Shown: one piece after another, positions 2,072 to 17,360 of the stretch
How positions within the stretch are numbered: position 1 is the stretch's first letter
Layout of the letters: every line of letters begins with the position of its first letter
Virus record (IMG/VR): IMGVR_UViG_3300001680_000191
Coordinates: 53,631-73,630 of that record
DNA: 20,000 nt
Source of the DNA: an uncultured virus (IMG/VR IMGVR_UViG_3300001680_000191)
Lineage: Duplodnaviria; Heunggongvirae; Uroviricota; Caudoviricetes
Strand: one strand, 5' to 3'
The notes under the pieces: model-generated
The model's database searches: none
What the model was told of the DNA's origin: nothing
What the model saw: the letters and a program-made list of their open reading frames with translations, nothing else
Program-made: the position numbers and the translations under genes

Positions 2072-2289
2072 TAAGAGTAGGCGATCTGGTAAAATACATT
2101 CCGAGTCCCTCTGCCACATTTAAGTGGGAGAGGTACACGGATGCGTATAAAGCCCTTCCTGGCGTGATTCTACGCGAAGTGAAAGCCAAGGGCACCACTA
2201 CGCGCCGATTTGAGATACGCTGGCACGACGGCCAGCTATCAGAAGAATGGATAAGTTTTCTGGAACCCTTTGACAACTCTTTGACTTGA
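2068..2289 (+). CDS. SH3-like micro-protein (73 aa)
   Basis: MIRVGDLVKY...GVIL...IRWHDG...FLEPF. Confidence 0.85.
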   Translation: MIRVGDLVKYIPSPSATFKWERYTDAYKALPGVILREVKAKGTTTRRFEIRWHDGQLSEEWISFLEPFDNSLT

Positions 2290-2314
2290 CTTGGGGCGGT
2301 TTCGGTGTTATATT
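2270..2314 (+). promoter_or_regulatory. Sigma70-type promoter, short (11+5) box variant
   Basis: TTGAC 2270, 2281; TTGACT 2286-N17-TATATT 2309. Confidence 0.8.
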
Positions 2315-2336
2315 ATAAGAGTAAGGAGAGGAAGAA

Positions 2337-2531
2337 ATGAGCCCTGAAGAAATGAAAGCGCGCCCCGTGCGATTTATCGTCGCTGGTGATATGGTACACG
2401 AAAATATAGGAACCTTTGGCGAATGGATCGGGCTCGTCATTGATGTTGATCAGCGTACAGGGACAGCCAAGATTCTCAGGCGAGGGAAAATCATCGAAAG
2501 AAGTGATCACGGTCGCTGGAATGTTGTTTAG
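2337..2531 (+). CDS. SH3-like micro-protein (64 aa)
   Basis: VAGDMV...GLVIDV; AAGGAGAGG SD. Confidence 0.75.
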   Translation: MSPEEMKARPVRFIVAGDMVHENIGTFGEWIGLVIDVDQRTGTAKILRRGKIIERSDHGRWNVV

Positions 2532-2535
2532 ACTC

Positions 2536-2590
2536 TTGACAATCACTTGACAGGATTGCCCTTGCTACCTGTGTCCCACTATGTTATATT
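2536..2590 (+). promoter_or_regulatory. Sigma70-type promoter with two upstream boxes
   Basis: TTGAC 2536, 2547; TTGCTA 2562-N17-TATATT 2585; leader ATAGGTATAGAAAGGA. Confidence 0.8.
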
Positions 2591-2612
2591 ATAGGTATAG
2601 AAAGGAGAAAAC

Positions 2613-2786
2613 ATGATCGAAGTTGGAAGTATTGTAGAGAGCATCGGCTTTGTGCAAGGGCACAACAAGTCAAACCACGGGCTTGTCATTAGCCTGATGG
2701 CAGACGGCAAGATCGCTCGCGTGTTCTGGATGGCTACGCAGCAGAGCGGCTTTTGCTCAGTTAAAGATTTGAAGGTGATAACATGA
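2613..2786 (+). CDS. SH3-like micro-protein (57 aa)
   Basis: Hand translation MIEVGSIVES...HGLVISL...RVFW...DLKVIT; AAAGGAG SD. Confidence 0.8.
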   Translation: MIEVGSIVESIGFVQGHNKSNHGLVISLMADGKIARVFWMATQQSGFCSVKDLKVIT

Positions 2787-3130
2787 AAGTTTGGGTTATG
2801 CAAGGAAGCTATGAAGGCGAGTTGTTTAGCAGCGTACACCTGACTCAGAAAGGTTGCGCCATGGCGTGTATTGCTGATATAATGGAGTTCTTGGATATTG
2901 ACGACGAAGCATCGATGCTCGATGCGATACAAGACAGACAGGTATACGAGGCTCCCGTTGGAGAAAAAGACGATATTGCGAAGCCTATTGAGTGGGACCA
3001 AGAGAAACTGAAAGAAATGACGAGCGAGCAGCTTTGGAAGATTTTTGCTGAGTGGTCCGAGATCAGTTGGGATCGAATGGCAGATCGTAGCTATAATCTC
3101 GACGCAAATCCTGTGGAGATTCAAGCATGA
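2783..3130 (+). CDS. Acidic hypothetical protein, paralog of 3127..3432
   Basis: ATGA overlaps at both ends; shared [VI]WV...S.H.T.KG and S.QL..I...W motifs. Confidence 0.85.
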   Translation: MKVWVMQGSYEGELFSSVHLTQKGCAMACIADIMEFLDIDDEASMLDAIQDRQVYEAPVGEKDDIAKPIEWDQEKLKEMTSEQLWKIFAEWSEISWDRMADRSYNLDANPVEIQA

Positions 3131-3432
3131 TGAACATTTGGGTAGTACGACAGACATGCACAATGGAACACGACACCTATCTCTCCACGCATATAACGGA
3201 GAAAGGCGCGCTGATCACCGCCATTAAAATAGTGCGTGAGGATCTGACAGACGGATTCGATGAGGATGAGCTTGAAGATATGCGATCAGGCATGCCCCAC
3301 CATCCCGAAGAAGATTTGATGCAGTACGACAGCAAACAACTACGGGGCATTGTTAACGACTGGTGGGAGTATGGCTTTGATATGAATGAACACGTACAAT
3401 ACCAGATACATCAAACACAGGTGGTAGGATGA
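3127..3432 (+). CDS. Acidic hypothetical protein, paralog of 2783..3130
   Basis: GGAG SD, ATGA overlaps, shared motifs. Confidence 0.85.
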   Translation: MMNIWVVRQTCTMEHDTYLSTHITEKGALITAIKIVREDLTDGFDEDELEDMRSGMPHHPEEDLMQYDSKQLRGIVNDWWEYGFDMNEHVQYQIHQTQVVG

Positions 3433-3665
3433 CAGCACTTAAAGTTTTTATTTTGGTGGGAACGATAGATTCTCACGATGGTCAGTTTGCGACAGTCGAA
3501 CTTAATCTAAATCCAGCAACGAATGGTGGCCCCGCGATGGCGGTGCTGCCCGTGTCTGCGTTTCCATGCGAGATCAAGGAAGGGAAAGTGTTTTATGTAG
3601 TTAAACTTTCCGAGCTGGAAGATGCTGTTATCATTTGCCAAAAGGAGCCTGATGAAAATAGGTGA
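3429..3665 (+). CDS. Hypothetical protein, possibly DUF3006-like
   Basis: TIDSHDGQFATVEL...LPVSAFP..IKEGKVF resembles the DUF3006 pattern as recalled, not searched. Confidence 0.65.
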   Translation: MTALKVFILVGTIDSHDGQFATVELNLNPATNGGPAMAVLPVSAFPCEIKEGKVFYVVKLSELEDAVIICQKEPDENR

Positions 3666-3846
3666 TTTGGTAAGGTTTGAAAGTGTCTTGAACGATGATA
3701 TGGATCGTTATCAAGAAGCACATGGCTTGGTGGTGAAGATGTCTAAGACTGGACACGATACAGAGTCAGCACAGGTGTTGTTTAGCAACGGAGAAACTGG
3801 ATGGCTTGATACTCAAAGATTGGTGGTGATAAATGAAAGTAGGTGA
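3652..3846 (+). CDS. MKVGDLV-family micro-protein (64 aa)
   Basis: AAGGAG SD then ATG 3652 MKIGDLVRF...LVVINESR. Confidence 0.88.
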   Translation: MKIGDLVRFESVLNDDMDRYQEAHGLVVKMSKTGHDTESAQVLFSNGETGWLDTQRLVVINESR

Positions 3847-4054
3847 CTTAGTTAAACTTCCGTCCTCGCGTGGAGCATCGTTCCGCGCTGGGCTTATTGT
3901 TGATTTTGTTGAAAAGAAATGCTGGCGCACAGAAGAACTTGGCATCAAGGTAGACTGGCGCAAGATCGATCCAGAGCCTCACGCGGTTGTGTTGATTAAC
4001 GGTAACCGCCGGACCATTCCGTTGACAGACTTGGAACCTATTGATGAAAGCTAG
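3833..4054 (+). CDS. MKVGDLV-family micro-protein (73 aa)
   Basis: MKVGDLVKLP...GLIV...LEPIDES; 14-nt overlap with upstream gene. Confidence 0.88.
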   Translation: MKVGDLVKLPSSRGASFRAGLIVDFVEKKCWRTEELGIKVDWRKIDPEPHAVVLINGNRRTIPLTDLEPIDES

Positions 4055-4250
4055 CGGCGCCCCCAGCATCGGTGATCTTGTTGTCGCACTCTACGATGTG
4101 GAGCGCGGCATTTCTTGCGCTGGATTGGTGATGGAGACTAAGGGAATCGAATGTAATGTTCGGTGGTTATCCGCAAGTTATCCTATCGGATGGTGGCAGC
4201 GTTCAGCCCTAAAAGTTATCAGCCCAAGCGGGAAGACCAAAAAAGTTTAA
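4044..4250 (+). CDS. MKVGDLV-family micro-protein (68 aa)
   Basis: MKASGAPSIGDLV...GLVME...VRW...LKVIS. Confidence 0.8.
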   Translation: MKASGAPSIGDLVVALYDVERGISCAGLVMETKGIECNVRWLSASYPIGWWQRSALKVISPSGKTKKV

Positions 4251-4255
4251 CGCAC

Positions 4256-4310
4256 TTAACAATCACTTGACAACTTAGAGGTTGACTAACACCCGTTTGG
4301 GTGCTATATT
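4256..4310 (+). promoter_or_regulatory. Sigma70-type promoter with two upstream boxes
   Basis: TTAAC 4256, TTGAC 4267; TTGACT 4282-N17-TATATT 4305; conserved leader. Confidence 0.85.
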
Positions 4311-4334
4311 ATAGGTATAGAAAGGAAGAAATAT

Positions 4335-4544
4335 ATGAAAGTCGGTGACCTTGTGATGTTTGAAAGTGACGTTCCCAAATCCCAGCGGTTCTGGACTGGC
4401 GAATATGTCAGAACAGGCATTGTTGTTGCTGAGTTATCCGGCGATCATATCGAAGCACCCGCTGTTTCAGTATTGTGGGCATCAGGCGAACTTACTGAAA
4501 GATGTCCTCCCCGGATACTGGAGGTGATCAGTGAAAGTCGGTGA
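4335..4544 (+). CDS. MKVGDLV-family micro-protein (69 aa)
   Basis: MKVGDLVMF...GIVV...VLWASG...LEVISESR. Confidence 0.9.
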   Translation: MKVGDLVMFESDVPKSQRFWTGEYVRTGIVVAELSGDHIEAPAVSVLWASGELTERCPPRILEVISESR

Positions 4545-4701
4545 TTTGGTAAGAGACGTTGAAGGCAAATACATCGGCATAGTTTCGCACATTGATCCTG
4601 AAGAAATCGGTGATGATGATGCGGTTATGGTTGTGTGGCTCGATGGTGATGCTTCTTGGCATACAGCAGAGTTTTTGGAGAGATTAAATGAAAATAGGTG
4701 A
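4531..4701 (+). CDS. MKVGDLV-family micro-protein (56 aa)
   Basis: Hand translation MKVGDLVRDVEGKYIGIVSHIDPEEIGDDDAVMVVWLDGD...LNENR; GGAGGTGATC SD, GTG start. Confidence 0.88.
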   Translation: MKVGDLVRDVEGKYIGIVSHIDPEEIGDDDAVMVVWLDGDASWHTAEFLERLNENR

Positions 4702-4864
4702 TTTGGTAGAATCCCCCCATCATATGATTCGGGGCATTGTCACGGAAGTAGGCGATGGTGACGATAACTATAATAACGGCCCAGCCGTGCGCGTCAAATG
4801 GCTTGACGGCGACGATTCGATAGAGTGGGCAGAGTATTTGAGGGTGATCAGTGAAGGTCGGTGA
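4688..4864 (+). CDS. MKVGDLV-family micro-protein (58 aa)
   Basis: Hand translation MKIGDLVESP...GIVTEV...VKWLDGD...LRVISEGR. Confidence 0.88.
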   Translation: MKIGDLVESPHHMIRGIVTEVGDGDDNYNNGPAVRVKWLDGDDSIEWAEYLRVISEGR

Positions 4865-5021
4865 TCTGGTGAGAAGCCTTAAATCTGAGGGTGGCATGTT
4901 GGGTATTATAGTTGGATGGCATCGCCACAACCGTGAGGCGCGCCCAATAGTCCGATGGAATGACGGCAGAATCAGTTGGGTGATGCCACATTTAGTCAAG
5001 GTAATGTGTCCAGTATTATGA
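4851..5021 (+). CDS. MKVGDLV-family micro-protein (56 aa), close paralog of 6570..6749
   Basis: Hand translation MKVGDLVRSLKSEGGMLGIIVGW...PIVRWNDGRISWVMPHLVKV. Confidence 0.88.
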   Translation: MKVGDLVRSLKSEGGMLGIIVGWHRHNREARPIVRWNDGRISWVMPHLVKVMCPVL

Positions 5022-5215
5022 AAGTAGGCGATCTGGTAAAGGTGGGACCACCATCGCGCCCTTTTATCACCCATCCATTTTTCGTGAGCATCGTGTTGGA
5101 AGTCAACAAGAGCGAAAACCATCCGAATGGTTTGGGGTTAGTTAAAGTGTTGGAAGCCGGCCAAGAAGCGTGGTATCCCATTGGATGCATCGAGTTGATA
5201 AATGAAAGTCGGTGA
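5018..5215 (+). CDS. MKVGDLV-family micro-protein (65 aa)
   Basis: ATG 5018 MKVGDLVKVG...IELINESR. Confidence 0.88.
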   Translation: MKVGDLVKVGPPSRPFITHPFFVSIVLEVNKSENHPNGLGLVKVLEAGQEAWYPIGCIELINESR

Positions 5216-5387
5216 TCTGGTTAAACTAAAGTGGCGAGGAAATGGTCACCCCAAGATTGGTGTGATTGTTGGTAGTTTTCAAGGTGACCTGGACTGTGAA
5301 GAATATAAAGTTTTATGGGATTGCCCGGAGTGGTCGATGGGCATGTGGAAAGAGCGTGAGTTGGTGGTGATCAGTGAAAATAGGTGA
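5202..5387 (+). CDS. MKVGDLV-family micro-protein (61 aa), paralog of 9851..10036
   Basis: MKVGDLVKLKWRGNGHPKIG...VLWD...LVVISENR. Confidence 0.88.
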   Translation: MKVGDLVKLKWRGNGHPKIGVIVGSFQGDLDCEEYKVLWDCPEWSMGMWKERELVVISENR

Positions 5388-5562
5388 TCTGGTCGAGATT
5401 GAAAAGTGGTGCAAGAACAAGTTTAGGAAAGCTATTGTTGTTCGGGTCGAAGAATGGGATCGCGAAGGCGCATGGATTAAGTATCTCGATGGCGGCCATG
5501 GCACAAGTGACAGCGGCTATGCCATGAAACGAAACTTGAAGGTGATCAGTGAAAGTAGGTGA
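5374..5562 (+). CDS. MKVGDLV-family micro-protein (62 aa)
   Basis: MKIGDLVEI...IKYLDG...LKVISESR. Confidence 0.88.
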   Translation: MKIGDLVEIEKWCKNKFRKAIVVRVEEWDREGAWIKYLDGGHGTSDSGYAMKRNLKVISESR

Positions 5563-5728
5563 TTTGATTAAACATAGGCATGCCGAGTGGCACACAGGCA
5601 TAGTCACAAAGGTTAGCCGTGACGGACCACCGGGCTTGGTGTATGTAGAGGCTTTGTGGAGTGGCGACTGGCTTAATGAACGGAGCATAGAACAACAATA
5701 TCTTGAGGTGATCAGTGAAGGTCGGTGA
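5549..5728 (+). CDS. MKVGDLV-family micro-protein (59 aa)
   Basis: Hand translation MKVGDLIKHRHAEWHTGIVTKV...ALWSGD...YLEVISEGR. Confidence 0.88.
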   Translation: MKVGDLIKHRHAEWHTGIVTKVSRDGPPGLVYVEALWSGDWLNERSIEQQYLEVISEGR

Positions 5729-5876
5729 TCTGGTTCGCGTAAATGCTCCCGTGGTGTATATCGGTATGGTTATGGTTACTAATGTGAAAGGTGGCGCTCT
5801 TGTGCGCTCGCTTGATGGCAACTATGAGTATTGGATATATGACTGGAGCGGGGAGGTTATCAGTGAAAGTCGGTGA
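5715..5876 (+). CDS. MKVGDLV-family micro-protein (53 aa)
   Basis: Hand translation MKVGDLVRVNAPVVYIGMV...RSLDG...EVISESR. Confidence 0.85.
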   Translation: MKVGDLVRVNAPVVYIGMVMVTNVKGGALVRSLDGNYEYWIYDWSGEVISESR

Positions 5877-6069
5877 TCTCATATCGTTCAAGCCAAAATC
5901 GTTCGGTGATGATGACTGGTCTAACCCCGGCATTGTACTCGACAGCTATGAGCATGATGATCGGCAAACTGGAGGCTGGAAAGACTTGATATGGATTGTA
6001 TGGATCGATGGTTATAAATGTATGGTCAACCAAAGAAACGATGATGTGGTTTACTTGACAGGTTCTTGA
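5863..6069 (+). CDS. MKVGDLV-family micro-protein (68 aa)
   Basis: GGAGG SD, GTG 5863 MKVGDLISF...PGIVL...IVWIDG. Confidence 0.88.
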   Translation: MKVGDLISFKPKSFGDDDWSNPGIVLDSYEHDDRQTGGWKDLIWIVWIDGYKCMVNQRNDDVVYLTGS

Positions 6070-6099
6070 CTTGACATTGGGGCAAATGGGTGTTATATT
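6055..6099 (+). promoter_or_regulatory. Sigma70-type promoter, short (11+5) box variant
   Basis: TTGAC 6055, 6066; TTGACA 6071-N17-TATATT 6094. Confidence 0.85.
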
Positions 6100-6105
6100 A
6101 TAGGT

Positions 6106-6243
6106 ATGAAGAAGAAAAAGACCAACACCCCGAAGCGCCGCAACTGGATCGCAGTCGCCGCACATTTTCGGCTCGCCGGAGCGATGAAGGATCGCAAGAA
6201 GGCAGCGAACAAAAAGGCATGCCGAGGAAAGGTGCGAGTATGA
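6106..6243 (+). CDS. Very basic 45-aa peptide, probably leaderless
   Basis: Hand translation MKKKKTNTPKRRNWIAVAAHFRLAGAMKDRKKAANKKACRGKVRV; ATG 7 nt after -10; ATGA overlap with next gene. Confidence 0.75.
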   Translation: MKKKKTNTPKRRNWIAVAAHFRLAGAMKDRKKAANKKACRGKVRV

Positions 6244-6410
6244 AAATCGGTGATCTGGTGCGTATGCAAGCGAATGGAACGATATGGTTAGTTATGTGTG
6301 TTGTCGGTGACGATGCACTGTTACATAATATGAAGACCAACTATCGAATGTGGGCGACTTGGAACCTCACACACGATAGACTCAACTATGAAGTGATGAG
6401 CGCAGCATGA
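6240..6410 (+). CDS. MKVGDLV-family micro-protein (56 aa)
   Basis: ATG 6240 MKIGDLVRM...YEVMSAA. Confidence 0.85.
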   Translation: MKIGDLVRMQANGTIWLVMCVVGDDALLHNMKTNYRMWATWNLTHDRLNYEVMSAA

Positions 6411-6583
6411 AAGTCGGTGATTTGGTAAAGAGTCGTTACGCAAGGTTTGAACTCGCTGGAGTGATGGGGGTTATCGTCAAAAATACACCCGAGTATTCCA
6501 CAACCCAATATCAGGTTTTGGTGGGTGGTCGCATACGATCCTTTGCGGCGAGGCATTTGGAGGTTATCAATGAAAGTCGGTGA
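6407..6583 (+). CDS. MKVGDLV-family micro-protein (58 aa)
   Basis: Hand translation MKVGDLVKSRY...GVIV...YQVLVGG...HLEVINESR. Confidence 0.88.
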   Translation: MKVGDLVKSRYARFELAGVMGVIVKNTPEYSTTQYQVLVGGRIRSFAARHLEVINESR

Positions 6584-6749
6584 TTTGGTGAGAAGCCTTC
6601 AGAGTTATAACTCTGAAGGCGGCATGTTAGGTATTATAGTCGGCTGGAACCGCAGCCCTGCAAATCTCCCTCATATCTGCCCAATAGTACGATGGAATGA
6701 CGGTAGAACCAGTTGGGTTATGCAACATTTAGTTAAGGTGGTGGTATGA
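6570..6749 (+). CDS. MKVGDLV-family micro-protein (59 aa), close paralog of 4851..5021
   Basis: GGAGG SD, ATG 6570 MKVGDLVRSLQSYNSEGGMLGIIVGW. Confidence 0.88.
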   Translation: MKVGDLVRSLQSYNSEGGMLGIIVGWNRSPANLPHICPIVRWNDGRTSWVMQHLVKVVV

Positions 6750-7030
6750 AAGTCGGTGATTTGGTAACATTGTCAACATATTCGTTATGTTCAGAACCGA
6801 TGTGGACATGGAAGAACAAGATTTGGGATGGTAAAAAGTCCCTTGTGGGGCTGGTTGTGTGTGTGAAAAATAACCCACGTATCAGGCCATGGACATCTAA
6901 GAATGAAAGCACATTTTATTATATTAACTGGATGCAGAAAGATGGTCCTGCGAGCCGATTCGGAACAACAATCTATCACGGCAGCGCGTCTGGATATTTC
7001 CTGCGTAAAGATTTGAAGTTTGTGAAGTGA
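6746..7030 (+). CDS. MKVGDLV-family protein with long loops (94 aa)
   Basis: MKVGDLVTL...GLVV...YINW...DLKFV. Confidence 0.88.
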   Translation: MKVGDLVTLSTYSLCSEPMWTWKNKIWDGKKSLVGLVVCVKNNPRIRPWTSKNESTFYYINWMQKDGPASRFGTTIYHGSASGYFLRKDLKFVK

Positions 7031-7047
7031 ACAAAAAGGAGATAAAG

Positions 7048-7392
7048 ATGCAAGTAAATGAGTTTTTTAATACAGTTGGTTCCAACAGGAACCGACAGGT
7101 TGTGTGTGCTGATGGGTTCACCATGAGTGTGCAAGCGTTCGATGGTGGGTACTGCACACCGCGCATCAACGACGCAGACAAGTATGAAGAAGTTGAGGTA
7201 GGCTACCCGAGCGAGCGCGAGGAACTACTGATGAACTGGGCAGAAGAACCCGACAAGCCGACACAAACGGTTTACGGATACGTGCCGGTTCAAGTGGTGA
7301 CGAATGTGCTGGCAAAGCACGGCGGCATTGTTGACGGCGAGATCCCCAAGGGTGTTGCCCCAATCCCAGCAAACTTTATGGTTGACGAATAG
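7048..7392 (+). CDS. Hypothetical phage protein (114 aa)
   Basis: AAGGAG SD before ATG 7048; CADGFTMSVQA...YCTPR...VEVGYPS motif, function unknown. Confidence 0.85.
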   Translation: MQVNEFFNTVGSNRNRQVVCADGFTMSVQAFDGGYCTPRINDADKYEEVEVGYPSEREELLMNWAEEPDKPTQTVYGYVPVQVVTNVLAKHGGIVDGEIPKGVAPIPANFMVDE

Positions 7393-7436
7393 TTGACAAC
7401 TTAGGCGTTGACAGTGGCGCTATGCTTTGCTATATT
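7382..7436 (+). promoter_or_regulatory. Sigma70-type promoter with two upstream boxes
   Basis: TTGAC 7382, 7393; TTGACA 7408-N17-TATATT 7431; conserved leader. Confidence 0.85.
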
Positions 7437-7459
7437 ATAGGTATAGAAAGGAAAAAACT

Positions 7460-7669
7460 ATGACCGAGCAACGACACCCAATCCACGCCGTAGGATCTTT
7501 GGTGCGGCACAAGAACCTTCCTGACAACCCTCTTGCGCTTGTTATAGACCATGCGCCTTGTTCAGATGGTAGCGGGATCATCGTCAGAGTGCTAAAGCCA
7601 TCAAGGGGCAATCCAAGCGGTGAGTTTGTCACAGTATCTATCAGATGGGAACTTGTTTCTTCGTCCTGA
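7460..7669 (+). CDS. SH3-like micro-protein (69 aa)
   Basis: AAAGGA SD, ATG 7460; AVGSLVRH...ALVID...VRVL...WELVS. Confidence 0.8.
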   Translation: MTEQRHPIHAVGSLVRHKNLPDNPLALVIDHAPCSDGSGIIVRVLKPSRGNPSGEFVTVSIRWELVSSS

Positions 7670-7719
7670 CATTCACTTGACAAGAAATGGCTTGCACTAA
7701 TAGCCATCCCGGTTATATT
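7666..7719 (+). promoter_or_regulatory. Sigma70-type promoter with two upstream boxes
   Basis: CTGAC 7666, TTGAC 7677; TTGCAC 7692-N16-TATATT 7714. Confidence 0.75.
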
Positions 7720-7738
7720 ATAAGAGTAAGGAGAAAAT

Positions 7739-8140
7739 ATGGGTTATCGTTCCGAAGTTGTTTTGTATGTGGGTCCAGAAGTGATGCCACAGTTTATGGT
7801 CGCGATGGCCAAGTCCCAAGCCGCCCGAGAGTTGTGCTTTGGCGATGCCGATCAGATGGTCAAAGATTATGGTGACGTTAAAGGTTCGTTCCTATTTAAG
7901 TGGGGATGGCTCAAATGGTACGATAGCTTCCCTTGTGTGAACGCCATCGAGGACTTTATGGATTGGTGCGACGGCGAGAAAGTTCCCACAGGCGAGAAAG
8001 ACGAGGAAGGGAAAGATAAGACAGACCACGCCACCGAGTTTTTCAAGTTTATTCGCATTGGCGCAGAAATGGATGACAATGAGCAGCGAGGCGATGCGTT
8101 TTGGGGTGACATTTATATCAACCGGAGCATTGAGTTTTAA
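7739..8140 (+). CDS. Hypothetical phage protein (133 aa)
   Basis: TAAGGAG SD; MGYRSEV...WLKWYD...FIRIG. Confidence 0.85.
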   Translation: MGYRSEVVLYVGPEVMPQFMVAMAKSQAARELCFGDADQMVKDYGDVKGSFLFKWGWLKWYDSFPCVNAIEDFMDWCDGEKVPTGEKDEEGKDKTDHATEFFKFIRIGAEMDDNEQRGDAFWGDIYINRSIEF

Positions 8141-8151
8141 GTTTGAGGAAA

Positions 8152-8227
8152 GGGACCATAGCTCAACTGGCAGAGCAAAAGGCTTTTAACCTTTAGGTTC
8201 TGGGTTCGATTCCCAGTGGTCCCACCA
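8152..8227 (+). tRNA. tRNA-Lys(TTT)
   Basis: Acceptor GGGACCA/TGGTCCC, anticodon arm AAAGG-CTTTTAA-CCTTT, GGTTCGA, CCA. Confidence 0.95.
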
Positions 8228-8234
8228 TTATCAC

Positions 8235-8311
8235 AGGCTCTTAGCTCAGTTGGTCAGAGCATTCCGCTCATAACGGATCGGTCGTCGGTTCAAGTCCGAC
8301 AGAGCCTACCA
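8235..8311 (+). tRNA. tRNA with CAT anticodon, probably tRNA-Ile2 (otherwise elongator Met)
   Basis: Acceptor AGGCTCT/AGAGCCT, loop CTCATAA, GGTTCAA, CCA; paired 1:72 and no GGG/CCC anticodon stem, so not initiator. Confidence 0.9.
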
Positions 8312-8331
8312 CTTTTATAATAGGAGAGAAA

Positions 8332-8535
8332 ATGATTTACACAGTCATTTATGAAGAAGAAAACACAGGAAATATGGGGACTTTTACTTTCGCGGCTCAG
8401 AGGCATGACAAAAACTATGCATGGGCTGAGTTTGTTGAAAAGTATGCAGAGAAAGGGCAAGAACCGATTGCTATAATGCCCGGTCAAAGCCTCGTATATT
8501 TTATACCTGACATTTCGTTTGCAAACGTGGCTTGA
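8332..8535 (+). CDS. Hypothetical protein (67 aa)
   Basis: AGGAG SD; stop lies in the -35 of the next promoter. Confidence 0.8.
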   Translation: MIYTVIYEEENTGNMGTFTFAAQRHDKNYAWAEFVEKYAEKGQEPIAIMPGQSLVYFIPDISFANVA

Positions 8536-8560
8536 CTTCGACAAGCGCCTGAGTTATAAT
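8532..8560 (+). promoter_or_regulatory. Sigma70-type promoter for tRNA-Arg
   Basis: TTGACT-N17-TATAAT directly before the tRNA; no upstream box pair. Confidence 0.85.
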
Positions 8561-8568
8561 ATAGTTAT

Positions 8569-8645: not shown

Positions 8646-8670
8646 CTCACAAACAACAAAAGGAAACAAA

Positions 8671-8895: not shown

Positions 8896-8907
8896 ATGTT
8901 AGTCCCC

Positions 8908-9019: not shown

Positions 9020-9304
9020 ATGAAAATGACACTCGTAGTAGACACGGACGACCCGAAAGGGATTGATCACGCATGGGAAATGATTGCCATTCTTCAAAAG
9101 AAGGCTGGTCGGAACCCAACTGCGATTCGGTATACTAAAGAGTTTGGAAAGATTGAATACATTAAGTCCCTCCGCAAGTACGTGCGCGAACAGGCAGATG
9201 CACTTAAAGATGCCGACGACGATACCGTGGGTGATATTAAGGACATGCAGAGCCTTCGCAATACCAAGCAGTTTGCTGACCGTATTTTCAATGGTGAAAA
9301 ATGA
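9020..9304 (+). CDS. Hypothetical protein (94 aa)
   Basis: ORF ends in ATGA overlap with next micro-gene; weak SD. Confidence 0.7.
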   Translation: MKMTLVVDTDDPKGIDHAWEMIAILQKKAGRNPTAIRYTKEFGKIEYIKSLRKYVREQADALKDADDDTVGDIKDMQSLRNTKQFADRIFNGEK

Positions 9305-9480
9305 AAGTTGGTGATCTGGTGACATTTGAGTTTAACCCTGATAACATCGCGTCGTTGGGTATCGTTACTTGTATCGATCCCGAAGAAATCGGTGATGCAA
9401 ATGAAGTCGAAGTTTTATGGAACGATGGCGATTCACGGAACCACTCAACAATCCATCTGGAGCTATTAAGTGAAGGTTAA
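9301..9480 (+). CDS. MKVGDLV-family micro-protein (59 aa), paralog of 4531..4701
   Basis: Hand translation MKVGDLVTF...GIVTCIDPEEIGDANEVEVLWNDGD...LELLSEG. Confidence 0.88.
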   Translation: MKVGDLVTFEFNPDNIASLGIVTCIDPEEIGDANEVEVLWNDGDSRNHSTIHLELLSEG

Positions 9481-9658
9481 AGTTGGCGATCTGGTGAGAA
9501 TGAAGGACACTATGTATGATAGTGATCTTGTCGGCATCGTTGTTGACAGGGACCATCATCCTAACTCTACCCAAATAGGTATAAAATGGTTTGGAGGTTC
9601 AGGCAAAGTTGACTGGGAGCCCGAGCCATGGTTGGAGGTTGTCAGTGAAAGTCGGTGA
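9470..9658 (+). CDS. MKVGDLV-family micro-protein (62 aa)
   Basis: MKVKVGDLVRM...GIVV...IKWFGG...LEVVSESR. Confidence 0.88.
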   Translation: MKVKVGDLVRMKDTMYDSDLVGIVVDRDHHPNSTQIGIKWFGGSGKVDWEPEPWLEVVSESR

Positions 9659-9794
9659 TCTGGTGTTTGATAGATACCATAAAAAATACAGCATCGTTGT
9701 GGATGTGTGGGGCAGCAAGAAAACGGGGAGGTTCGTTAAACTTAACCAGGGATACAAAGTATCTGCCGAATATATGAGGGTTGTTAGTTCTTAA
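9645..9794 (+). CDS. MKVGDLV-family micro-protein (49 aa)
   Basis: GGAGG SD, GTG 9645 MKVGDLVFD...MRVVSS. Confidence 0.85.
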   Translation: MKVGDLVFDRYHKKYSIVVDVWGSKKTGRFVKLNQGYKVSAEYMRVVSS

Positions 9795-9844
9795 CAATCT
9801 CTTGACGGGAAAAACTTGCGTTAACCGCTGCGCGGTGTTATAAT
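9791..9844 (+). promoter_or_regulatory. Sigma70-type promoter with two upstream boxes
   Basis: TTAAC 9791, TTGAC 9802; TTGCGT 9816-N17-TATAAT 9839. Confidence 0.75.
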
Positions 9845-9850
9845 ATATAT

Positions 9851-10036
9851 ATGAAAGTTGGTGATCTGGTAAAACTCAAACATCAAGGTAATGGCCACCC
9901 ACGTATCGGTATCGTTAAAAGCGTGTCGGTGCGTTCTCTTGAAGAAAGGGTATGCACGTGTATGTGGGATAAGCCATTGTGGGATTACGTTCAGTATAAT
10001 GAAGGCGAGTTGGAGGTTGTTAGTGAAAGTAGGTGA
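9851..10036 (+). CDS. MKVGDLV-family micro-protein (61 aa), probably leaderless
   Basis: MKVGDLVKLKHQGNGHPRIGIV...LEVVSESR; ATG 7 nt after -10, no SD. Confidence 0.88.
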   Translation: MKVGDLVKLKHQGNGHPRIGIVKSVSVRSLEERVCTCMWDKPLWDYVQYNEGELEVVSESR

Positions 10037-10190
10037 TCTGGTGAGATACAAAGGCATTTTAGGCATTGTTACTGCGCCTTGCATAAAGCGATGGGCTAAA
10101 TCTGGTGATGTGTGGGTGCTGTGGAACAACAGGAGCAAGCCCATCGTGGAGTGCAGCGGCTTTATGGAGTTGGTAAATGCAAGTCGGTGA
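10023..10190 (+). CDS. MKVGDLV-family micro-protein (55 aa)
   Basis: GGAGG SD, GTG 10023 MKVGDLVRYKGILGIV...VLWNN...MELVNASR. Confidence 0.88.
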   Translation: MKVGDLVRYKGILGIVTAPCIKRWAKSGDVWVLWNNRSKPIVECSGFMELVNASR

Positions 10191-10359
10191 CTTAGTTAAA
10201 CATTTTCTGACCGAGCAGATCGGCGTCATAGTTTTTATCTCGCAACATAACGGGCTTCCGATCCGTGTGCTGTGGACAACGCAGGGCGATTCCCTGTTCG
10301 GTCCCGGCAACAAAGAATGGTGTGGAGAGAATCAGTTGGATCTCTTGACAACTGCTTGA
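10177..10359 (+). CDS. MKVGDLV-family micro-protein (60 aa)
   Basis: MQVGDLVKH...GVIV...VLW...LDLL. Confidence 0.88.
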   Translation: MQVGDLVKHFLTEQIGVIVFISQHNGLPIRVLWTTQGDSLFGPGNKEWCGENQLDLLTTA

Positions 10360-11232: not shown

Positions 11233-11240
11233 GTCAACCC

Positions 11241-12400: not shown

Positions 12401-13486
12401 ATGGCTATCGACTTCGCAACATTTCTCGCTGTCGCCCCTCACGTACTCAACTCACGGCTTCCCGTGCTTATCCGTGGTCGCCACGGTGTCGGCAAGTCCG
12501 AAGTGGTCTACCAGATCGCAGAGACTCGCGAGCTTCCGATTGTGGAGCGCCGCGCATCGCAGATGACCGAGGGTGATCTTTTGGGTCTGCCCGATACGGC
12601 GGATACCGCGATCAATGGTCGCAAATGTACCACGTGGAACGCCCCTGATTGGCTTGTAACAGCCTGTGAGCAGCCCGTGTTGCTGTTCTTGGACGAGGTT
12701 GACCGTGCGACTCAAGAGGTCCGTCAAGGGCTGTTTGAGTTGACTGATAGCCGCAAGATCAACGGTTGGCATCTGCACCCTGAGACTCTGATCGTCGCTG
12801 CCGTCAATGGTGGCGAGCATGGCGCGCAGTACCAAGTCGGTGAAATGGACCCGGCAGAACTTGACCGTTGGACCGTGTTCGATGTTGAACCTTCAACCGA
12901 AGATTGGCTCAAGTGGGCAAATGGCCGGATTCCCTCCGTTGTGTGGGACTTCATTAACCATAACCGGAAGCATCTGGAGCATGAGGGTGATTTTGAGCCT
13001 AACAAGGTTTATCCTTCTCGCCGCTCATGGGCGCGTTATAGCGATACCGCTGCGTCCGTTGGCGTGTTCGATGAGGATGGCGATCGCGATATGCTGTTCA
13101 ACCTTGCGACTGCGTTCCTTGGTTTTGAGGCGGCTGTGTCCCTTCGTGACTTTGTTGAAAAGTACGAATGGCAAGTAACCATCGAGGATATTCTTGATGC
13201 CGGCGATCTCTCCAAGTGTGAGAAGTGGGGTATCAATGACCACGCTGCCATGATTGAGAAGTTTGAGGCATCCGGTGTATTCAAGGAAGATCTGGCCGAG
13301 AGCCAGATCACCAACCTCGCAGAATACTTTGTTGCTCTGCCCTCCGAGGTAGCTATGAAGTTGTGGACCGTTCTCGGTGACACCGACAACATTAACAACG
13401 TCGTTGCTCTGCACAAGGCTGAGACTTCTGATGGCAAGCGAGTGAGTGATCACCTTGTTGAGATCCTTGGTGGGGGAGATGCATAG
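12401..13486 (+). CDS. MoxR/dynein-related AAA+ ATPase (361 aa)
   Basis: Walker A GRHGVGKS, Walker B LLFLDE, sensor AAVN, arginine finger DPAELDRW, PSRRSW; VWA partner nearby. Confidence 0.92.
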   Translation: MAIDFATFLAVAPHVLNSRLPVLIRGRHGVGKSEVVYQIAETRELPIVERRASQMTEGDLLGLPDTADTAINGRKCTTWNAPDWLVTACEQPVLLFLDEVDRATQEVRQGLFELTDSRKINGWHLHPETLIVAAVNGGEHGAQYQVGEMDPAELDRWTVFDVEPSTEDWLKWANGRIPSVVWDFINHNRKHLEHEGDFEPNKVYPSRRSWARYSDTAASVGVFDEDGDRDMLFNLATAFLGFEAAVSLRDFVEKYEWQVTIEDILDAGDLSKCEKWGINDHAAMIEKFEASGVFKEDLAESQITNLAEYFVALPSEVAMKLWTVLGDTDNINNVVALHKAETSDGKRVSDHLVEILGGGDA

Positions 13487-13724
13487 TAGCGTAAGGCGAC
13501 CGCCCCTCCGCGCTCCGATGATTGGCGACATTGTTCGCCTCTCCGGTCCCGGCGGAATGGGACGCCAGTATAAGAGGGTTCACGGTCTTGGGATCGTGGT
13601 TCTCATAGCTAAACCAGAAGATCGCCGAATCGAGTACGAGGTAAAGTGGCTCAAGAGTGATGAGCGCATGCGATTTAACGAAGAAGACCTGATCATAATA
13701 TCCGATGTGGACCGACAAACTTAA
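13479..13724 (+). CDS. SH3-like micro-protein (81 aa; start may be later)
   Basis: PMIGDIVRL...LGIVV...YEVKWL...EEDLIII. Confidence 0.8.
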   Translation: MHSSVRRPPLRAPMIGDIVRLSGPGGMGRQYKRVHGLGIVVLIAKPEDRRIEYEVKWLKSDERMRFNEEDLIIISDVDRQT

Positions 13725-13908
13725 AATAGGCGACCTTGTATGGTCGAAACGCGACGATAAGCCCGCCCTGATCCTTGACCGCGAGGAAACAGCGCGTGTC
13801 AAATATGGTGATCTTGTCAACAAAAGGATGAGGTTCAAACTACATATTGATGGTGAGCAGGGATGGCTCGATGAGATCAAACTTCGAGCGATGTATAAAC
13901 TTCCCTGA
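13705..13908 (+). CDS. MKVGDLV-family micro-protein (67 aa)
   Basis: LKIGDLVW...ALIL...LHIDGEQGW. Confidence 0.8.
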   Translation: MWTDKLKIGDLVWSKRDDKPALILDREETARVKYGDLVNKRMRFKLHIDGEQGWLDEIKLRAMYKLP

Positions 13909-13959
13909 CATTCACTTGACAACATTTACCTTGACGTTTGCCCTTTTGGGTGCTATATT
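13905..13959 (+). promoter_or_regulatory. Sigma70-type promoter with two upstream boxes
   Basis: CTGAC 13905, TTGAC 13916; TTGACG 13931-N17-TATATT 13954; conserved leader. Confidence 0.85.
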
Positions 13960-13983
13960 ATAGGTATAGAAAGGAAAAAGAAC

Positions 13984-15207
13984 ATGGCCGATAAGCCCTT
14001 CAATCTCAACATGCACACCGCTCGCCTTCTGATGCGCGAGCCCTTCTTTGCTGCGCTCTCGCGGCGGATCGACAAGATCGCCTCGACCGCGATCCCGACT
14101 GCCGGTGTGCGGGTCAACCCCGACTCCGCTCAGTTTGAACTTCTGTATAACCCGGAGTTTTTCGCGCAGCTTAGCGACGATCACAAGTTGGGCGTTTTGA
14201 AGCATGAGTTTTACCACTTGATCTTTGAGCACGTAACCAGCCGCAAGCCAGCCGATGGCTTGAAGCGGATCGATAACATCGCTATGGATCTGGCGATCAA
14301 CTGCCACATTTCCAACGAGTTGCCCAACGAAGCAAATCCCGGTCCAACCATCGGCAAAGAGCCGATGCAAGCATGCATCCCCGGTGAAGGCATATTCAAG
14401 GATCTGCCGTCGTTCAAGTCTTACGAGTGGTATCTTGAAGCCCTTAAAAAGATGCAAGAGGATCAGGACGAAGGCGACGGCGAAGGTGGCGAAGGCTCCG
14501 GCGATCCCTTCGGTGACGCTGACTCGCTCGATGACCATGACGGCTTCGGTGAAGTCGATGGCACAACTGAGGAAATCGCCAAGGAGCGCATGAAAGAAAC
14601 GCTCAAGAAAGCCGCAGAGGAAGCGGAGAAAGCACGCAACTGGGGTACAGTATCCTCGTCCATGCGTCAGGATATTCTTGATCGCATCCAGACCAAGATC
14701 GATTGGCGCAAGGTTCTCCGCTACTTCGTTAAAACTTCTCAGCGCGCAGACAAGCGTTCGACGCCTCGCCGCCTGAACAAGCGTTATCCGCGCATCCATC
14801 CGGGCAAGCGTGTCCGTCGCCAAGCCAAGATCGCGATCAGCATTGATCAATCTGGATCGGTCGATGATCAGATGCTTGCCGCGTTCTTCTCCGAGTTGAA
14901 CAAGCTGGCTGAGATTGCCGAGTTTACCGTGATCCCCTTCGATACCGTTGTGGCCGAGAGCAAGATATACACATGGAAAAAAGGACAGAGCAAAAAGACC
15001 GAGCGTGTGATGCGCGGAGGTACATGCTTCAACGCGCCAACCAAATACGTCAACGAACGTGGATTTGATGGTCACATCGTTTTGACAGACCTGTGTGCCC
15101 CGAAGCCCGTTGCATCCAAGTGCCAACGCATGTGGATGACTACGGCGACGTATGCTGCTCGCCCCTACTTTTCAACTAACGAACGTATCATAGCTATCGA
15201 CGCTTAG
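13984..15207 (+). CDS. Putative metallopeptidase domain plus VWA-like domain protein (DUF2201-type)
   Basis: HEFYH (HEXXH), NIAMDLAIN, acidic Gly-rich linker, MIDAS DQSGS, GGT and LTD motifs. Confidence 0.9.
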   Translation: MADKPFNLNMHTARLLMREPFFAALSRRIDKIASTAIPTAGVRVNPDSAQFELLYNPEFFAQLSDDHKLGVLKHEFYHLIFEHVTSRKPADGLKRIDNIAMDLAINCHISNELPNEANPGPTIGKEPMQACIPGEGIFKDLPSFKSYEWYLEALKKMQEDQDEGDGEGGEGSGDPFGDADSLDDHDGFGEVDGTTEEIAKERMKETLKKAAEEAEKARNWGTVSSSMRQDILDRIQTKIDWRKVLRYFVKTSQRADKRSTPRRLNKRYPRIHPGKRVRRQAKIAISIDQSGSVDDQMLAAFFSELNKLAEIAEFTVIPFDTVVAESKIYTWKKGQSKKTERVMRGGTCFNAPTKYVNERGFDGHIVLTDLCAPKPVASKCQRMWMTTATYAARPYFSTNERIIAIDA

Positions 15208-15240
15208 GGTGCGTTAAACTTCCCCGGACATGGAGTAAAA

Positions 15241-15567
15241 ATGTCATTCTCAGGACCGAGACTAAAAAACGATGGTGTCATCAAAGCATGGCAGAATGGG
15301 CTAAGTGCCCGTAATCACAGGCATTCTTTGGCTTCGATCTCAGACGAGAGCGGCCGAGCCGAGTTGTATAGCTACGACTTAAAGATCGGAGAGCGCACAC
15401 CTGCCGGTGTCATGGTCATCGCTGACTTCACTGCGCCGGCCAAGGGCTTTCATTCTATGACAACTTCTTGTCATGTGAACCTTGCCAAATGCAAGACGGG
15501 CAACCCTGTGATCATGCATCCGAGGGTGTGGGAGTGTTCACCGTTGAGCGAAACGAAGCCTTTTTGA
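15241..15567 (+). CDS. Hypothetical protein (108 aa)
   Basis: GGAG SD; abuts next gene. Confidence 0.8.
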   Translation: MSFSGPRLKNDGVIKAWQNGLSARNHRHSLASISDESGRAELYSYDLKIGERTPAGVMVIADFTAPAKGFHSMTTSCHVNLAKCKTGNPVIMHPRVWECSPLSETKPF

Positions 15568-15771
15568 ATGAGCAAGTTTAAGCCCGGTGATCTGGTGAGG
15601 ATCAAAGATAATACACATCAGGTTGAAATACCCGATCATCGGGTCGGTTTGATCATGGAAGTAGGTGAGACTTCAAAATCCTACACCAAGGCTTACACGG
15701 TTGTTTTTTTGGGGACAGACGTGCGGTTAAAGTTTCACGAAATCTTCTTAGAACACTTTACATCCTCTTGA
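15568..15771 (+). CDS. MKVGDLV-family micro-protein (67 aa)
   Basis: KFKPGDLVRIK...VGLIMEV...YTVVF...FLEHF. Confidence 0.85.
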   Translation: MSKFKPGDLVRIKDNTHQVEIPDHRVGLIMEVGETSKSYTKAYTVVFLGTDVRLKFHEIFLEHFTSS

Positions 15772-16033: not shown

Positions 16034-16351
16034 ATGGATCTGCCTATCGTTGTCAGCATGAATCCGATGCTCTACACTGATCGATCCGGTCAGAAGTGGG
16101 CGGTATCCGGCGAGCATTGGGTGGAAGTGCCTGATGCGCTGACTCTCGACGAGGTTGGCAAGTATATGATCGTGGAGCAGCGTGAAACACCCGCTGTATC
16201 GCGTGACGTTCGCTCCTGGCAGGTTCAAGGCAGCAAGGGGAATACCTACACTGTAACCGACAACGGAGGAACGTGGACCTGTACGTGTCCCGGTTTCGGC
16301 TGGCGTCGAAAGTGTAAGCACGTGGAGGCTCAGAAAAATGAAAGTCGGTGA
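16034..16351 (+). CDS. SWIM zinc-finger protein (105 aa)
   Basis: GSKGNTYTV...WTCTCPGFGWRRKCKHV matches CxC-xn-CxH; GGAGG SD. Confidence 0.88.
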   Translation: MDLPIVVSMNPMLYTDRSGQKWAVSGEHWVEVPDALTLDEVGKYMIVEQRETPAVSRDVRSWQVQGSKGNTYTVTDNGGTWTCTCPGFGWRRKCKHVEAQKNESR

Positions 16352-16505
16352 TCTGATCAGACCAAAGCGAAATCCGGGCTGCGTTGCGGTGGTATTGAAT
16401 ATCGCCGCGATGGGGTTCTTGCGGGTCAAAGTGTTGGTCGTTGGGTCAACCACGCCCGAAACCTGCGACCCGAGAATGTGGGAGGTCATCTATGAAAGTC
16501 GGTGA
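16338..16505 (+). CDS. MKVGDLV-family micro-protein (55 aa)
   Basis: Hand translation MKVGDLIRPKRNPGCVAVVL...WEVIYESR. Confidence 0.85.
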   Translation: MKVGDLIRPKRNPGCVAVVLNIAAMGFLRVKVLVVGSTTPETCDPRMWEVIYESR

Positions 16506-16695
16506 TTTGTATAGATTTGAAGGAACCGTGTCCATGCGCCTGTATGGGCGGCTGGCCGTTTATCTCGGTGAGGCTTTTATTCACTTTGACGATGGCTCGA
16601 CCATCGAGAACCATCAAGTTTTGCTGGTCGGAGAGGCAACCCCGACGATCATTGATCGTGGAGTTTTGAAATGGATGAACAGGATAACAGCATGA
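16492..16695 (+). CDS. MKVGDLV-family micro-protein (67 aa)
   Basis: GGAGG SD, ATG 16492 MKVGDLYRF. Confidence 0.85.
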   Translation: MKVGDLYRFEGTVSMRLYGRLAVYLGEAFIHFDDGSTIENHQVLLVGEATPTIIDRGVLKWMNRITA

Positions 16696-16850
16696 AAGTT
16701 GGCGCATTGGTGGAGTTTCGGGGTTATCACGGGTTGATACTTGAGATCGGTGAAGATGATCGGGACGGTCAAGTATTTGTCGGATGGTTTGGATTGTTGC
16801 CGGAATGGGACAACCCCAAGATATTGAAGGTTATCAATGAAAGTCGGTGA
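16692..16850 (+). CDS. MKVGDLV-family micro-protein (52 aa), close paralog of 18298..18447
   Basis: Hand translation MKVGALVEFRGYHGLILEIGEDDRDGQVFVGWFGLLPEWDNPKILKVINESR. Confidence 0.88.
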   Translation: MKVGALVEFRGYHGLILEIGEDDRDGQVFVGWFGLLPEWDNPKILKVINESR

Positions 16851-17016
16851 TCTGGTATGCCTGTGTCCGGTCGCCTATCCCGACACGATTGGCGTGGTTA
16901 CGCAGATCCTTATCCGGGATCAGTATGGCGATCCTCTGGATATAAAAGTGCTGCACAACGGTCAGATCGACCAATGGGAAGCAGACGAAGCGGCGGTGAT
17001 CAGTGAAAATCGGTGA
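16837..17016 (+). CDS. MKVGDLV-family micro-protein (59 aa)
   Basis: Hand translation MKVGDLVCLC...IGVVTQI...KVLHNG...AVISENR. Confidence 0.85.
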   Translation: MKVGDLVCLCPVAYPDTIGVVTQILIRDQYGDPLDIKVLHNGQIDQWEADEAAVISENR

Positions 17017-17179
17017 CTTGGTAAAAACCGTTATTGAAAATCCAAGTGTTCACACACAACGCCCTTTCCTCGTAACAGAGAAAATGAGCGTCATAGGGGT
17101 AAGTTGGATCAAACTGCTTGGGTTTCCCGATTGGTTTCGCGCAGAAGAATGGATGGTGCTCAGTGCGATGTACTCTTAA
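17003..17179 (+). CDS. MKVGDLV-family micro-protein (58 aa)
   Basis: Hand translation MKIGDLVKTV...FLVTEK...WIKLLG...WMVLSAMYS. Confidence 0.85.
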   Translation: MKIGDLVKTVIENPSVHTQRPFLVTEKMSVIGVSWIKLLGFPDWFRAEEWMVLSAMYS

Positions 17180-17360
17180 TGGTATTTATGTCGGCGATCT
17201 TGTCACGTATAGCTCTCCGGCAATCACCGGCAACTTTGCCGGTCTTGTCACCGAAGTTGGCTCATGGCAAGGCAACGCCGACGTTAAAGTATTGTGGACG
17301 CATGAAAATGAGCCCATCACACAGAAAAGCAGTCATCTGAAGCTCTTGACAAACGCTTGA
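17163..17360 (+). CDS. MKVGDLV-family micro-protein (65 aa)
   Basis: GTG 17163; IYVGDLVTY...GLVTEV...VKVLW...HLKLL. Confidence 0.8.
   Translation: MRCTLNGIYVGDLVTYSSPAITGNFAGLVTEVGSWQGNADVKVLWTHENEPITQKSSHLKLLTNA

Follow-up and report, generated by a model that had tools for sequence, protein, structure and literature searches.

Overlapping stop and start codons, both ATGA and longer, couple translation in bacterial and phage operons, and integron gene cassettes (attC/IntI) form arrays of small, promoterless, co-oriented cassettes behind a promoter. The element reported here shares features with both, and the closest described system is a third, the promoter-early stem-loop (PeSL) cassette, which mediates modular shuffling in T4-type phages (Arbiol et al. 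2010, PMC2839356; Comeau et al. 2014, PMC4122927). Arbiol et al. describe PeSLs as intergenic elements of ~100 bp, composed of a sigma-70 promoter and a stem-loop terminator, that flank unrelated ORFans (PMC2839356). The window analyzed in this work comprises 20,000 nucleotides (nt) and forms the end of one virus record of 73,630 bp (IMG/VR IMGVR_UViG_3300001680_000191), from an uncultured marine phage. It contains arrays of very small genes linked by a ~30-nt sequence, the joint, in which the end of one open reading frame (ORF) overlaps the start, or head, of the next, and which can be regarded as a coding-overlap variant of the PeSL. The joint is likely the inherited boundary between the paralogues of a tandem array, serving as Shine-Dalgarno (SD) sequence, start and stop and, being repeated in register, as a crossover point for the loss, gain and exchange of cassettes.

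Joint and PeSL are both short conserved sequences that recur with the same orientation in a hyperplastic region, where they separate small, non-essential early genes. In both systems the genes between copies are deleted, inserted or replaced by recombination and remain expressible, and close relatives differ in this way; both phages are myoviruses with their own recombinase, and in both the repeated elements steer recombination to acceptable places with the expression signals travelling along. The region around the joints is hyperplastic like the PeSL setting, although the joint itself is not intergenic: its ~30 nt code in two frames, carry a stop, an SD and a start instead of a promoter and a terminator, and link paralogues of one family in polycistronic trains. 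With overlapping-gene coupling the joint shares a stop within or just after the next start and an SD inside the upstream coding sequence, and by its layout (upstream stop overlapping the downstream start, SD within the upstream ORF) it belongs to that class. It differs in that the same 14-nt overlap is reused dozens of times and encodes a conserved N-terminus, that it has stops for both other frames, and that the same bases would be the recombination point. The arrays resemble those of integrons in having small, co-oriented, promoterless cassettes of fast-changing content behind a promoter, but no integrase was found in five related records and no inverted-repeat attC at the joints, the cassettes are paralogous, and the exchange appears to be driven by homology.

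In the reference joint (4519..4551, + strand), TGGAGGTGATCA encodes L-E-V-I of the upstream protein and contains the SD, GTG is the start, and AAAGTCGGTGA is read as K-V-G-D downstream and as E-S-R-stop in the upstream frame. The original prediction had read this sequence correctly as TGGAGGTGATCAGTGAAAGTCGGTGATTTGGT at 4519-4550, with GGAGGTGATC at 4520-4529. GGAGGTGATC encodes the last strand, L-E-V-I, MKVGDLV is the first strand of the next protein, and the tail -S-E-S-R* of the upstream protein is forced. The sequence GGAGGUGAUC would be complementary to the 16S 3' tail in its textbook form. The two frames proposed for the head were likewise found, the downstream one being [A/G]TG-AAA-GTC-GGT-GAT and the upstream one A[G/A]T-GAA-AGT-CGG-TGA, that is, S/N-E-S-R-stop. 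The window has 25 copies of RTGAARRTNGGTGAY on its + strand, where 200 shuffles averaged 0.01, and a slightly looser pattern, [A/G]TG-AAR-RTN-GGN-GAY (MK[V/I]GD), gives 26 canonical heads on this strand, none on the - strand of the window and none in the remainder of the 73,630-bp contig. A repeat search of 4300-6100 recovered the joint as a 33-nt direct repeat in nine copies; no inverted repeats were found at joints, and the two inverted pairs in that interval are both away from them.

A 14-nt overlap, with the upstream gene stopping at the TGA at offset +11, is present at 17 of the 26 canonical heads (Table 1). Together with the divergent head MQVGD at 10177 these make up the 18 such junctions that had been counted before, and the eight ATGA overlaps of the same count were also recovered: six at canonical heads (5018, 6240, 6407, 6746, 9301 and 18444), one at 2068 (MIRVGD) and one at 16692, an internal ATG within the longer ORF 16671-16850. 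At start 9301, long open frames are closed by both out-of-frame stops. The three heads without overlap stand behind promoters (4335 and 9851) or behind an in-frame TAG (18298).

Evidence that the joint is a crossover point comes from close relatives. Relatives were collected through the MoxR-like ATPase of the window, not through the joint, and include 187-195 kb records rated 100% complete; the 80 loci retrieved in this way, unbiased as to the joint, contain 667 family ORFs and 490 unique canonical heads. One relative, L200, is a separate IMG/VR record with 99.98% identity to the window; it has 3 mismatches in 13,255 positions against window 6746-20000 and lacks exactly window 6570-6745, one cassette of 176 bp. 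The cassette is flanked by the 20-mer ATGAAAGTCGGTGATTTGGT (6570-6589 and 6746-6765), which is single copy in L200, and the crossover falls inside these 20 identical head bases. After the loss, the tail of gene 6407 (genes are named by their start) meets the body of gene 6746 by a 14-nt overlap, so that the punctuation is kept. The indel is polymorphic in environmental contigs from four sequencing runs (X1, X3, X4 and X5; X1 may be the source sample and is not independent). A 4,018-nt contig of run X4 has the deleted form: it passes over the 176 nt, and 20 letters match either side. A 7,054-nt contig of run X5 has the undeleted form, continuous over 4519-11314. A gain or loss breakpoint within the joint, as the original prediction had proposed, is therefore observed.

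Within 2228-6589, the other differences between the window and L200 number 38 and fall into three patches, two of which begin or stop at a joint (Table 1). These patches are distributed differently among the runs, indicating independent exchanges among co-occurring strains. In another relative, L161, cassette 3652 is relocated two genes further along. Recombination between copies would account for indels and replacements among close relatives (the 176-bp indel, L161 and others). In a linkage profile of 230 unique joints, positions 0 and +3 track the upstream cassette and positions from +14 onward the downstream cassette, with the switch between +3 and +14, in pairs that are not independent (74 sharing the upstream cassette only and 105 the downstream cassette only). 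Contig joins with short sides (22-38 nt) that skip or go back were discarded as evidence of circles or rearrangements and left uncounted, since they reflect k-mer (de Bruijn) ambiguity at the repeat; most of them begin and end at heads.

The genes linked by the joint form one family. A hidden Markov model built from 26 proteins retrieved 35 ORFs (E<=0.0013) that lie between window 2059 and 18611, every one of them on the + strand. The proteins have 49-94 amino acids (aa), mostly 50-70, and the pattern MKVGDLV...G[IV]V...V.W.DG...L.V[IV]; divergent members keep xGDLV with otherwise different N-termini. AlphaFold2, run with the family alignment on gene 4531, predicted a five-strand barrel of ~55 residues (strands 6-9, 15-21, 31-36, 41-45 and 49-51) with a predicted local distance difference test score of 91.3, the last six residues averaging 75. 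The best Foldseek matches (template modelling score about 0.75) were PetP (2n5u), a Lon specificity factor, the Tudor domains of PHF1/PHF19, KOW domains and SPbeta YorP (2heq); scores against the Tudor, KOW, PetP and YorP structures span 0.72-0.79. At the fold level the family is, by prediction, a small SH3-like/Tudor-type beta-barrel, sharing the five strands and ~55 residues of the Tudor/KOW/SH3-like proteins among these (YorP, PetP, PHF1/PHF19). It differs from them in that all Foldseek E-values exceed 0.01, sequence similarity is marginal and the Pfam gathering cut-off is reached by none of 17 members (best SH3_CYT4, 16.9 bits against 27). Two members match PHROGs families of unknown function, and neither PHROGs nor Pfam provides a usable name for the mini-genes. 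A PDB sequence search gave only marginal SH3, KOW and eS28 rows (best E 0.0048, a designed SH3), and the nearest ESM Atlas neighbours are viral hypothetical proteins; the named ones, R67 DHFR and DsrB (score 0.86), were kept as leads only. Long multi-repeat profile matches are eukaryote-type Tudor_5 repeat proteins and were treated as fold-level similarity, not as kin.

The family is large. A profile search of 1.84 billion representative proteins returned 4,215 matches at E<=0.001. Most of these are 50-70 aa long with a single domain, and all are named 'hypothetical protein' in their sources. Four complete relatives carry 16-22 copies each, essentially all in one region of 12-20 kb in genomes of ~190 kb, and clustering of 708 family ORFs at 60% identity gives 416 clusters. 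The string 'MKVGDLV' occurs in no paper of the searched literature (subscription papers and supplements lay outside the search), and nothing relevant on tandem SH3-like small phage genes was found among the titles listed; on these literature searches alone, the family and the joint have apparently not been described before. Natural two-domain fusions of the family, with the joint read through as a linker (...LEVVKQVKVGDLV...), are present among the metagenomic proteins (P0005, P0077 and P0202). Since adjacent genes differ by one frame, two barrels would be fused if the frame shifted by a single base at a joint; no slippery site for programmed frameshifting between neighbouring domains was seen on inspection by eye.

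How much of the joint is explained by ordinary constraint can be evaluated from the 490 unique heads. These have a 14-nt overlap behind a family gene (221) or behind another ORF (78), an ATGA overlap (77), no overlap (98, free-standing), or an ambiguous context (16). The consensus of the 221 family-to-family joints is TGGAGGTGATCA[A/G]TGAAAGTCGGTGAT. GGAGGT at -11..-6 is conserved to 71-95% per base across them, and the synonymous third base of GAG is G in 95%, as expected from the constraint on the SD (GGAGG). Positions with high information are mostly non-synonymous or SD positions, and synonymous sites past the overlap vary (Leu6 TTG/CTG/TTA; Val7 GTA/GTT/GTG). Dual coding, SD and stop explain most of the conservation of the joint, but not all of it. 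Among free-standing heads, codon 3 is GTC in 46 of 76 GTN codons (61%) and codon 4 is GGT in 66 of 97 GGN codons (68%), against family-body backgrounds of 0.198 and 0.31; ATGA-overlapped heads give 39/63 and 53/76, and free-standing heads with one value per 60%-identity cluster still give 37/60 and 52/78. Val7, in turn, is GTC in just three of 89 free-standing heads. The codon-3 variant GTT, which puts Trp at the upstream C-terminus, makes up one of the 195 GTN codons of overlapped family joints and 10 of the 76 of free-standing heads, and GTG starts are found in 106 of 221 overlapped family joints and in 12 of 98 free-standing heads. Moreover, 26 of the 68 cassette clusters present in at least two contexts occupy more than one joint class. 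The simplest reading of the synonymous excess is that cassettes switch context faster than the sites decay, exchange inside heads homogenizing them. Coding plus SD, the alternative offered with the original prediction, thus holds for most of the conservation and fails for the GTC and GGT excess in non-overlapped heads.

Taken as a mechanism, the joint would be the boundary shared by small SH3/Tudor-like phage genes of one hyperdiverse, tandemly amplified family. In the upstream protein its left half encodes the final beta-strand (L-E-V-I), and in the next protein its right half encodes the first strand (M-K-V-G-D-L-V). Shifted by one frame, the right half provides the upstream tail -[S/N]-E-[S/G]-R and the TGA; this C-terminal extension is a passenger on the upstream protein. 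For translation, GAG-GTG-ATC may double as a long SD 6 nt ahead of the start, and each gene in a train of up to ten may be initiated either directly or by the ribosome terminating 11 nt downstream. For recombination, seen in one event and presumably general, dozens of copies with ~20-33 nt of near-identity in one orientation would be a substrate for the RecA/UvsX-type homologous recombination of the phage itself, or for replication slippage. A search of the rest of the genome for a recombinase or annealing protein found a RecA-family protein (contig 19298-20440; PF00154, 121 bits; phrog_97, UvsX-like, E 2.6e-60), together with a 5'-3' exonuclease and a single-stranded DNA-binding protein (SSB). 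In-register recombination would delete, duplicate, swap and re-order whole cassettes, and each product would retain a working stop, SD and start.

Several points weigh against the joint as a dedicated crossover point, or limit the evidence for it. Near-identical locus pairs show five distinct indels >=30 nt, of which one is head-to-head, two are at promoter cassettes (L204 against L236, 223 bp including a tRNA; L217 against L219) and two are elsewhere; homology-driven exchange is hence not special to the joint, since it also occurs at the repeated promoter cassette described below. Compared with 17 more distant relatives, homology in the arrays ends within -15..+25 of a head in 45 of 73 rows (16.5% expected), with most remaining ends adjoining other gene boundaries, but these rows repeat events across the 17 relatives, and selection alone would leave ends at gene boundaries, so that they are not independent proof of the mechanism. 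On the side of recombination, cassette content and order change far faster than the neighbouring core ATPase: at 85-95% ATPase identity, 123 of 515 cassette clusters are common and 14 of 38 possible adjacencies are retained, and at 70-85% identity 389 of 6,992 and 9 of 62, values in which sharing is underestimated because many of the relatives' loci are incomplete. The codon counts are phylogenetically non-independent even after clustering, and a preference for A/T-ending codons at 5' ends may be behind AAA, GAT and some of the GGT, but GTC does not fit it. The runs were seen as contigs, in which frequencies, circles and rare joints are not visible. Finally, translational coupling is something we infer from the layout.

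Among the rival explanations, one goes further than ours and holds that second-order selection keeps the head, with a TGA in each of the other two frames, and the SD-coding tail because any cassette could then be placed behind any gene, and that excised single-cassette circles travel between co-infecting phages, as in an integron without integrase. This is possible but doubtful. In its favour, about two-thirds of the heads for which the +11 TGA is superfluous still carry it, heads also punctuate non-family genes (78 of 299 14-nt overlaps, and gene A of Table 1), the same cassette is found in different joint classes, and PeSL mini-circles (PMC2839356) are a precedent. However, unused stops may persist as a time lag after a context switch, the ratio of 221 14-nt to 29 ATGA overlaps among family-to-family joints suggests a fixed, inherited arrangement and not free plugging in every frame, and no circle or insertion intermediate was seen in the assembled contigs, where circles are not visible. 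The connector interpretation of the original prediction stands in part, as regards breakpoints in the joint and synonymous excess. Selection for that role is, in these data, inseparable from a side effect of paralogy and frequent context switching. A still broader version, equally tentative, would make the joint a universal adaptor with recombinase-independent, self-punctuating cassettes, combinatorial libraries of SH3-like binders, selected insertability and circles passing between co-infecting phages; within it, the barrels would probably be early host-takeover or counter-defence factors.

It is unlikely that constraint is the whole explanation, with two strands, an SD and a stop packed together and recombination incidental, no commoner than at other short repeats. 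The predominance of non-synonymous and SD positions, the free synonymous sites of Leu6 and Val7 beyond the overlap and the indels at other repeats agree with it; against it are GTC and GGT at 2-3 times background in heads without an overlapping upstream gene, also per cluster, the crossover of the sole recent cassette indel inside a head, and the extreme turnover of neighbours. The original prediction had named beforehand two outcomes that would count against it, breakpoints outside the joint and constraint explaining all conservation, and neither was obtained. Site-specific recombination at the joint by a dedicated recombinase or nuclease, as with attC/IntI, is highly improbable: the core is very sharply conserved and swaps are exactly in register, but five related records, four of them rated 100% complete, contain neither a tyrosine recombinase (PF00589; control positive in 14/14 genomes) nor a serine recombinase (PF00239), the joint repeat is direct and not inverted, and the one 'HNH endonuclease' label (PHROG, 13984-15207) was rejected in favour of the DUF2201 VWA/metallopeptidase assignment of Pfam. 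That the cassette indel is an assembly artefact, from collapse of the repeated joint, is hardly credible either, for although contigs of all four runs tend to end at joints, both forms lie on long contigs (>1.8 kb either side) from different runs and in two separate IMG/VR records, and a 20-nt repeat is below the usual assembly word.

The window also carries another repeated element, a promoter cassette about 80 nt long. It contains two or three TTGACA boxes and TATATTATAGGTAT, followed by AGAAAGGAG and a start. At <=3 mismatches it has 19 matches (1.08 expected), seven of them exact, and about 15 copies on the + strand. Copy 4305 has a short G/C stem-loop between -35 and -10 (4290-4303), and in copy 1885 a stem-loop overlaps the -35 box (1859-1882). 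These cassettes resemble PeSLs and are a closer PeSL analogue than the joint. One of them heads a train of ten mini-genes, train 1; no further promoter-like site was found on the + strand between 4311 and 6070, an interval spanning nine joints, and no terminator-like site on this strand between 4304 and 6836, so the ten genes would depend on the joints for initiation. The leader ORF of train 2, directly behind a promoter cassette, encodes a very basic protein of 45 aa that starts with MKKKK, and joins the first family gene by an ATGA overlap.

Table 1. Position of the features discussed in the text (window coordinates).
Feature	Position	Strand	Remarks
14-nt overlap starts (canonical heads)	3652, 3833, 4531, 4688, 4851, 5202, 5374, 5549, 5715, 5863, 6570, 9645, 10023, 16338, 16492, 16837, 17003	+	
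Mosaic patch	3645-3726	+	17 differences from L200, including a 3-nt indel; begins at joint before 3652; run X4 only
Mosaic patch	4108-4124		run X3 only
Mosaic patch	4419-4526	+	20 differences from L200; stops at joint before 4531; in runs X3 and X4 up to 4517 (X4 just to 4484)
Promoter cassette copies	1885, 2309, 2585, 4305, 6094, 7431, 7714, 8555, 9839, 11290, 12241, 13954, 15806, 17395, 18960	+	
Sigma-70-like promoter TTGACT-17-TATATT	4282..4310	+	within repeated promoter cassette; heads train 1
Train 1, ten family genes	4335..6069	+	eight 14-nt overlaps, one ATGA overlap
Train 1 genes	4335-4544, 4531-4701, 4688-4864, 4851-5021, 5018-5215, 5202-5387, 5374-5562, 5549-5728, 5715-5876, 5863-6069	+	
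Train 2	6071..7030	+	promoter 6071-6099; ORF 6106-6243; family genes 6240-6410, 6407-6583, 6570-6749, 6746-7030
Non-family gene	3429-3665	+	tail -D-E-N-R* comes from next head
Family genes behind 3429-3665	3652-3846, 3833-4054, 4041-4250	+	block 3429..4250
Divergent family members	1913-2071, 2068-2289, 2337-2531, 2613-2786	+	N-termini xxIGDIV, MIRVGDLV, MIEVGSIV
Second array (9301..10359)	9301-9480, 9470-9658, 9645-9794, 9851-10036, 10023-10190, 10177-10359	+	
Gene A, conserved, non-family	16034-16351	+	105 aa; last residues N-E-S-R* imposed by following head
Third array (16338..17360)	16338-16505, 16492-16695, 16692-16850, 16837-17016, 17003-17179	+	plus divergent member within 17118-17360
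Family genes	18298-18447, 18444-18614	+	ATGA overlap between them
Divergent family members, scattered (13446..15771)	within ORFs 13446-13724, 13705-13908, 15568-15771	+	
MoxR-like AAA_5 ATPase	12401-13486		conserved core between arrays
DUF2201 protein	13984-15207		conserved core between arrays; VWA-like and putative metallopeptidase
tRNA Leu-taa	1567-1652		
tRNA Lys-ttt	8152-8227		
tRNA Met-cat	8235-8311		
tRNA Arg-tct	8569-8645		

The slot of the third array, behind gene A, contains different cassette sets in different relatives. Of 42 sources with an orthologue of gene A, 19 show the tail -[EA][SN]R* and 23 show unrelated tails; orthologues without a following head have different C-terminal ends, and the tail changes with the gene that comes next. 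Gene A also has a C-x-C...C-x-H motif near its end that has no Pfam match and presumably resembles a SWIM-type zinc finger. A further family-like gene, with the N-terminus MFEVGELIKRK, occupies 19894-20000 and is severed where the contig stops; the array hence probably extends past the record.

The rest of the contig, all on the + strand, has genes for tail sheath, tail tube, baseplate, a DnaB-like helicase and ribonucleotide reductase, and also encodes a large DNA polymerase, GroEL and head proteases, besides the SSB, the UvsX/RecA-like recombinase and the 5'-3' exonuclease. No close cultured relative was found, the ATPase reaching at most 31% identity in cultured phages (Vibrio phages), and for this reason no host is assigned. 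Against GenBank phages, megablast of window 3500-9500 matched only a 58-nt tRNA-like segment and tblastn of one family member gave no match. Four transfer RNA (tRNA) genes are located among the arrays (Table 1). Over 8005-8671 the contig depth rises 10-25-fold in three of the four runs (X1, X3 and X4), presumably from tRNA-like contigs of other organisms mapping there. The GC skew is strongly positive over the arrays (0.20-0.32, window 3001-7000). Antisense ORFs of up to 165 aa cross several cassettes, e.g. 4625-5122 (- strand), and are probably spurious.

Phage 'ORFan' regions are a birthplace of new host-interaction genes, and the speed of their turnover is only partly understood. In the locus described here the exchange unit, the crossover site and a natural presence/absence polymorphism are all visible at base resolution, and the crossover site would be not a regulatory spacer but an overlapping stop, SD and start that secures the expression of whatever is joined. 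A large unnamed family concentrated in one region is a good system for the diversification of a minimal binding fold, and the joint itself is a natural design for seamless polycistronic cassette assembly.

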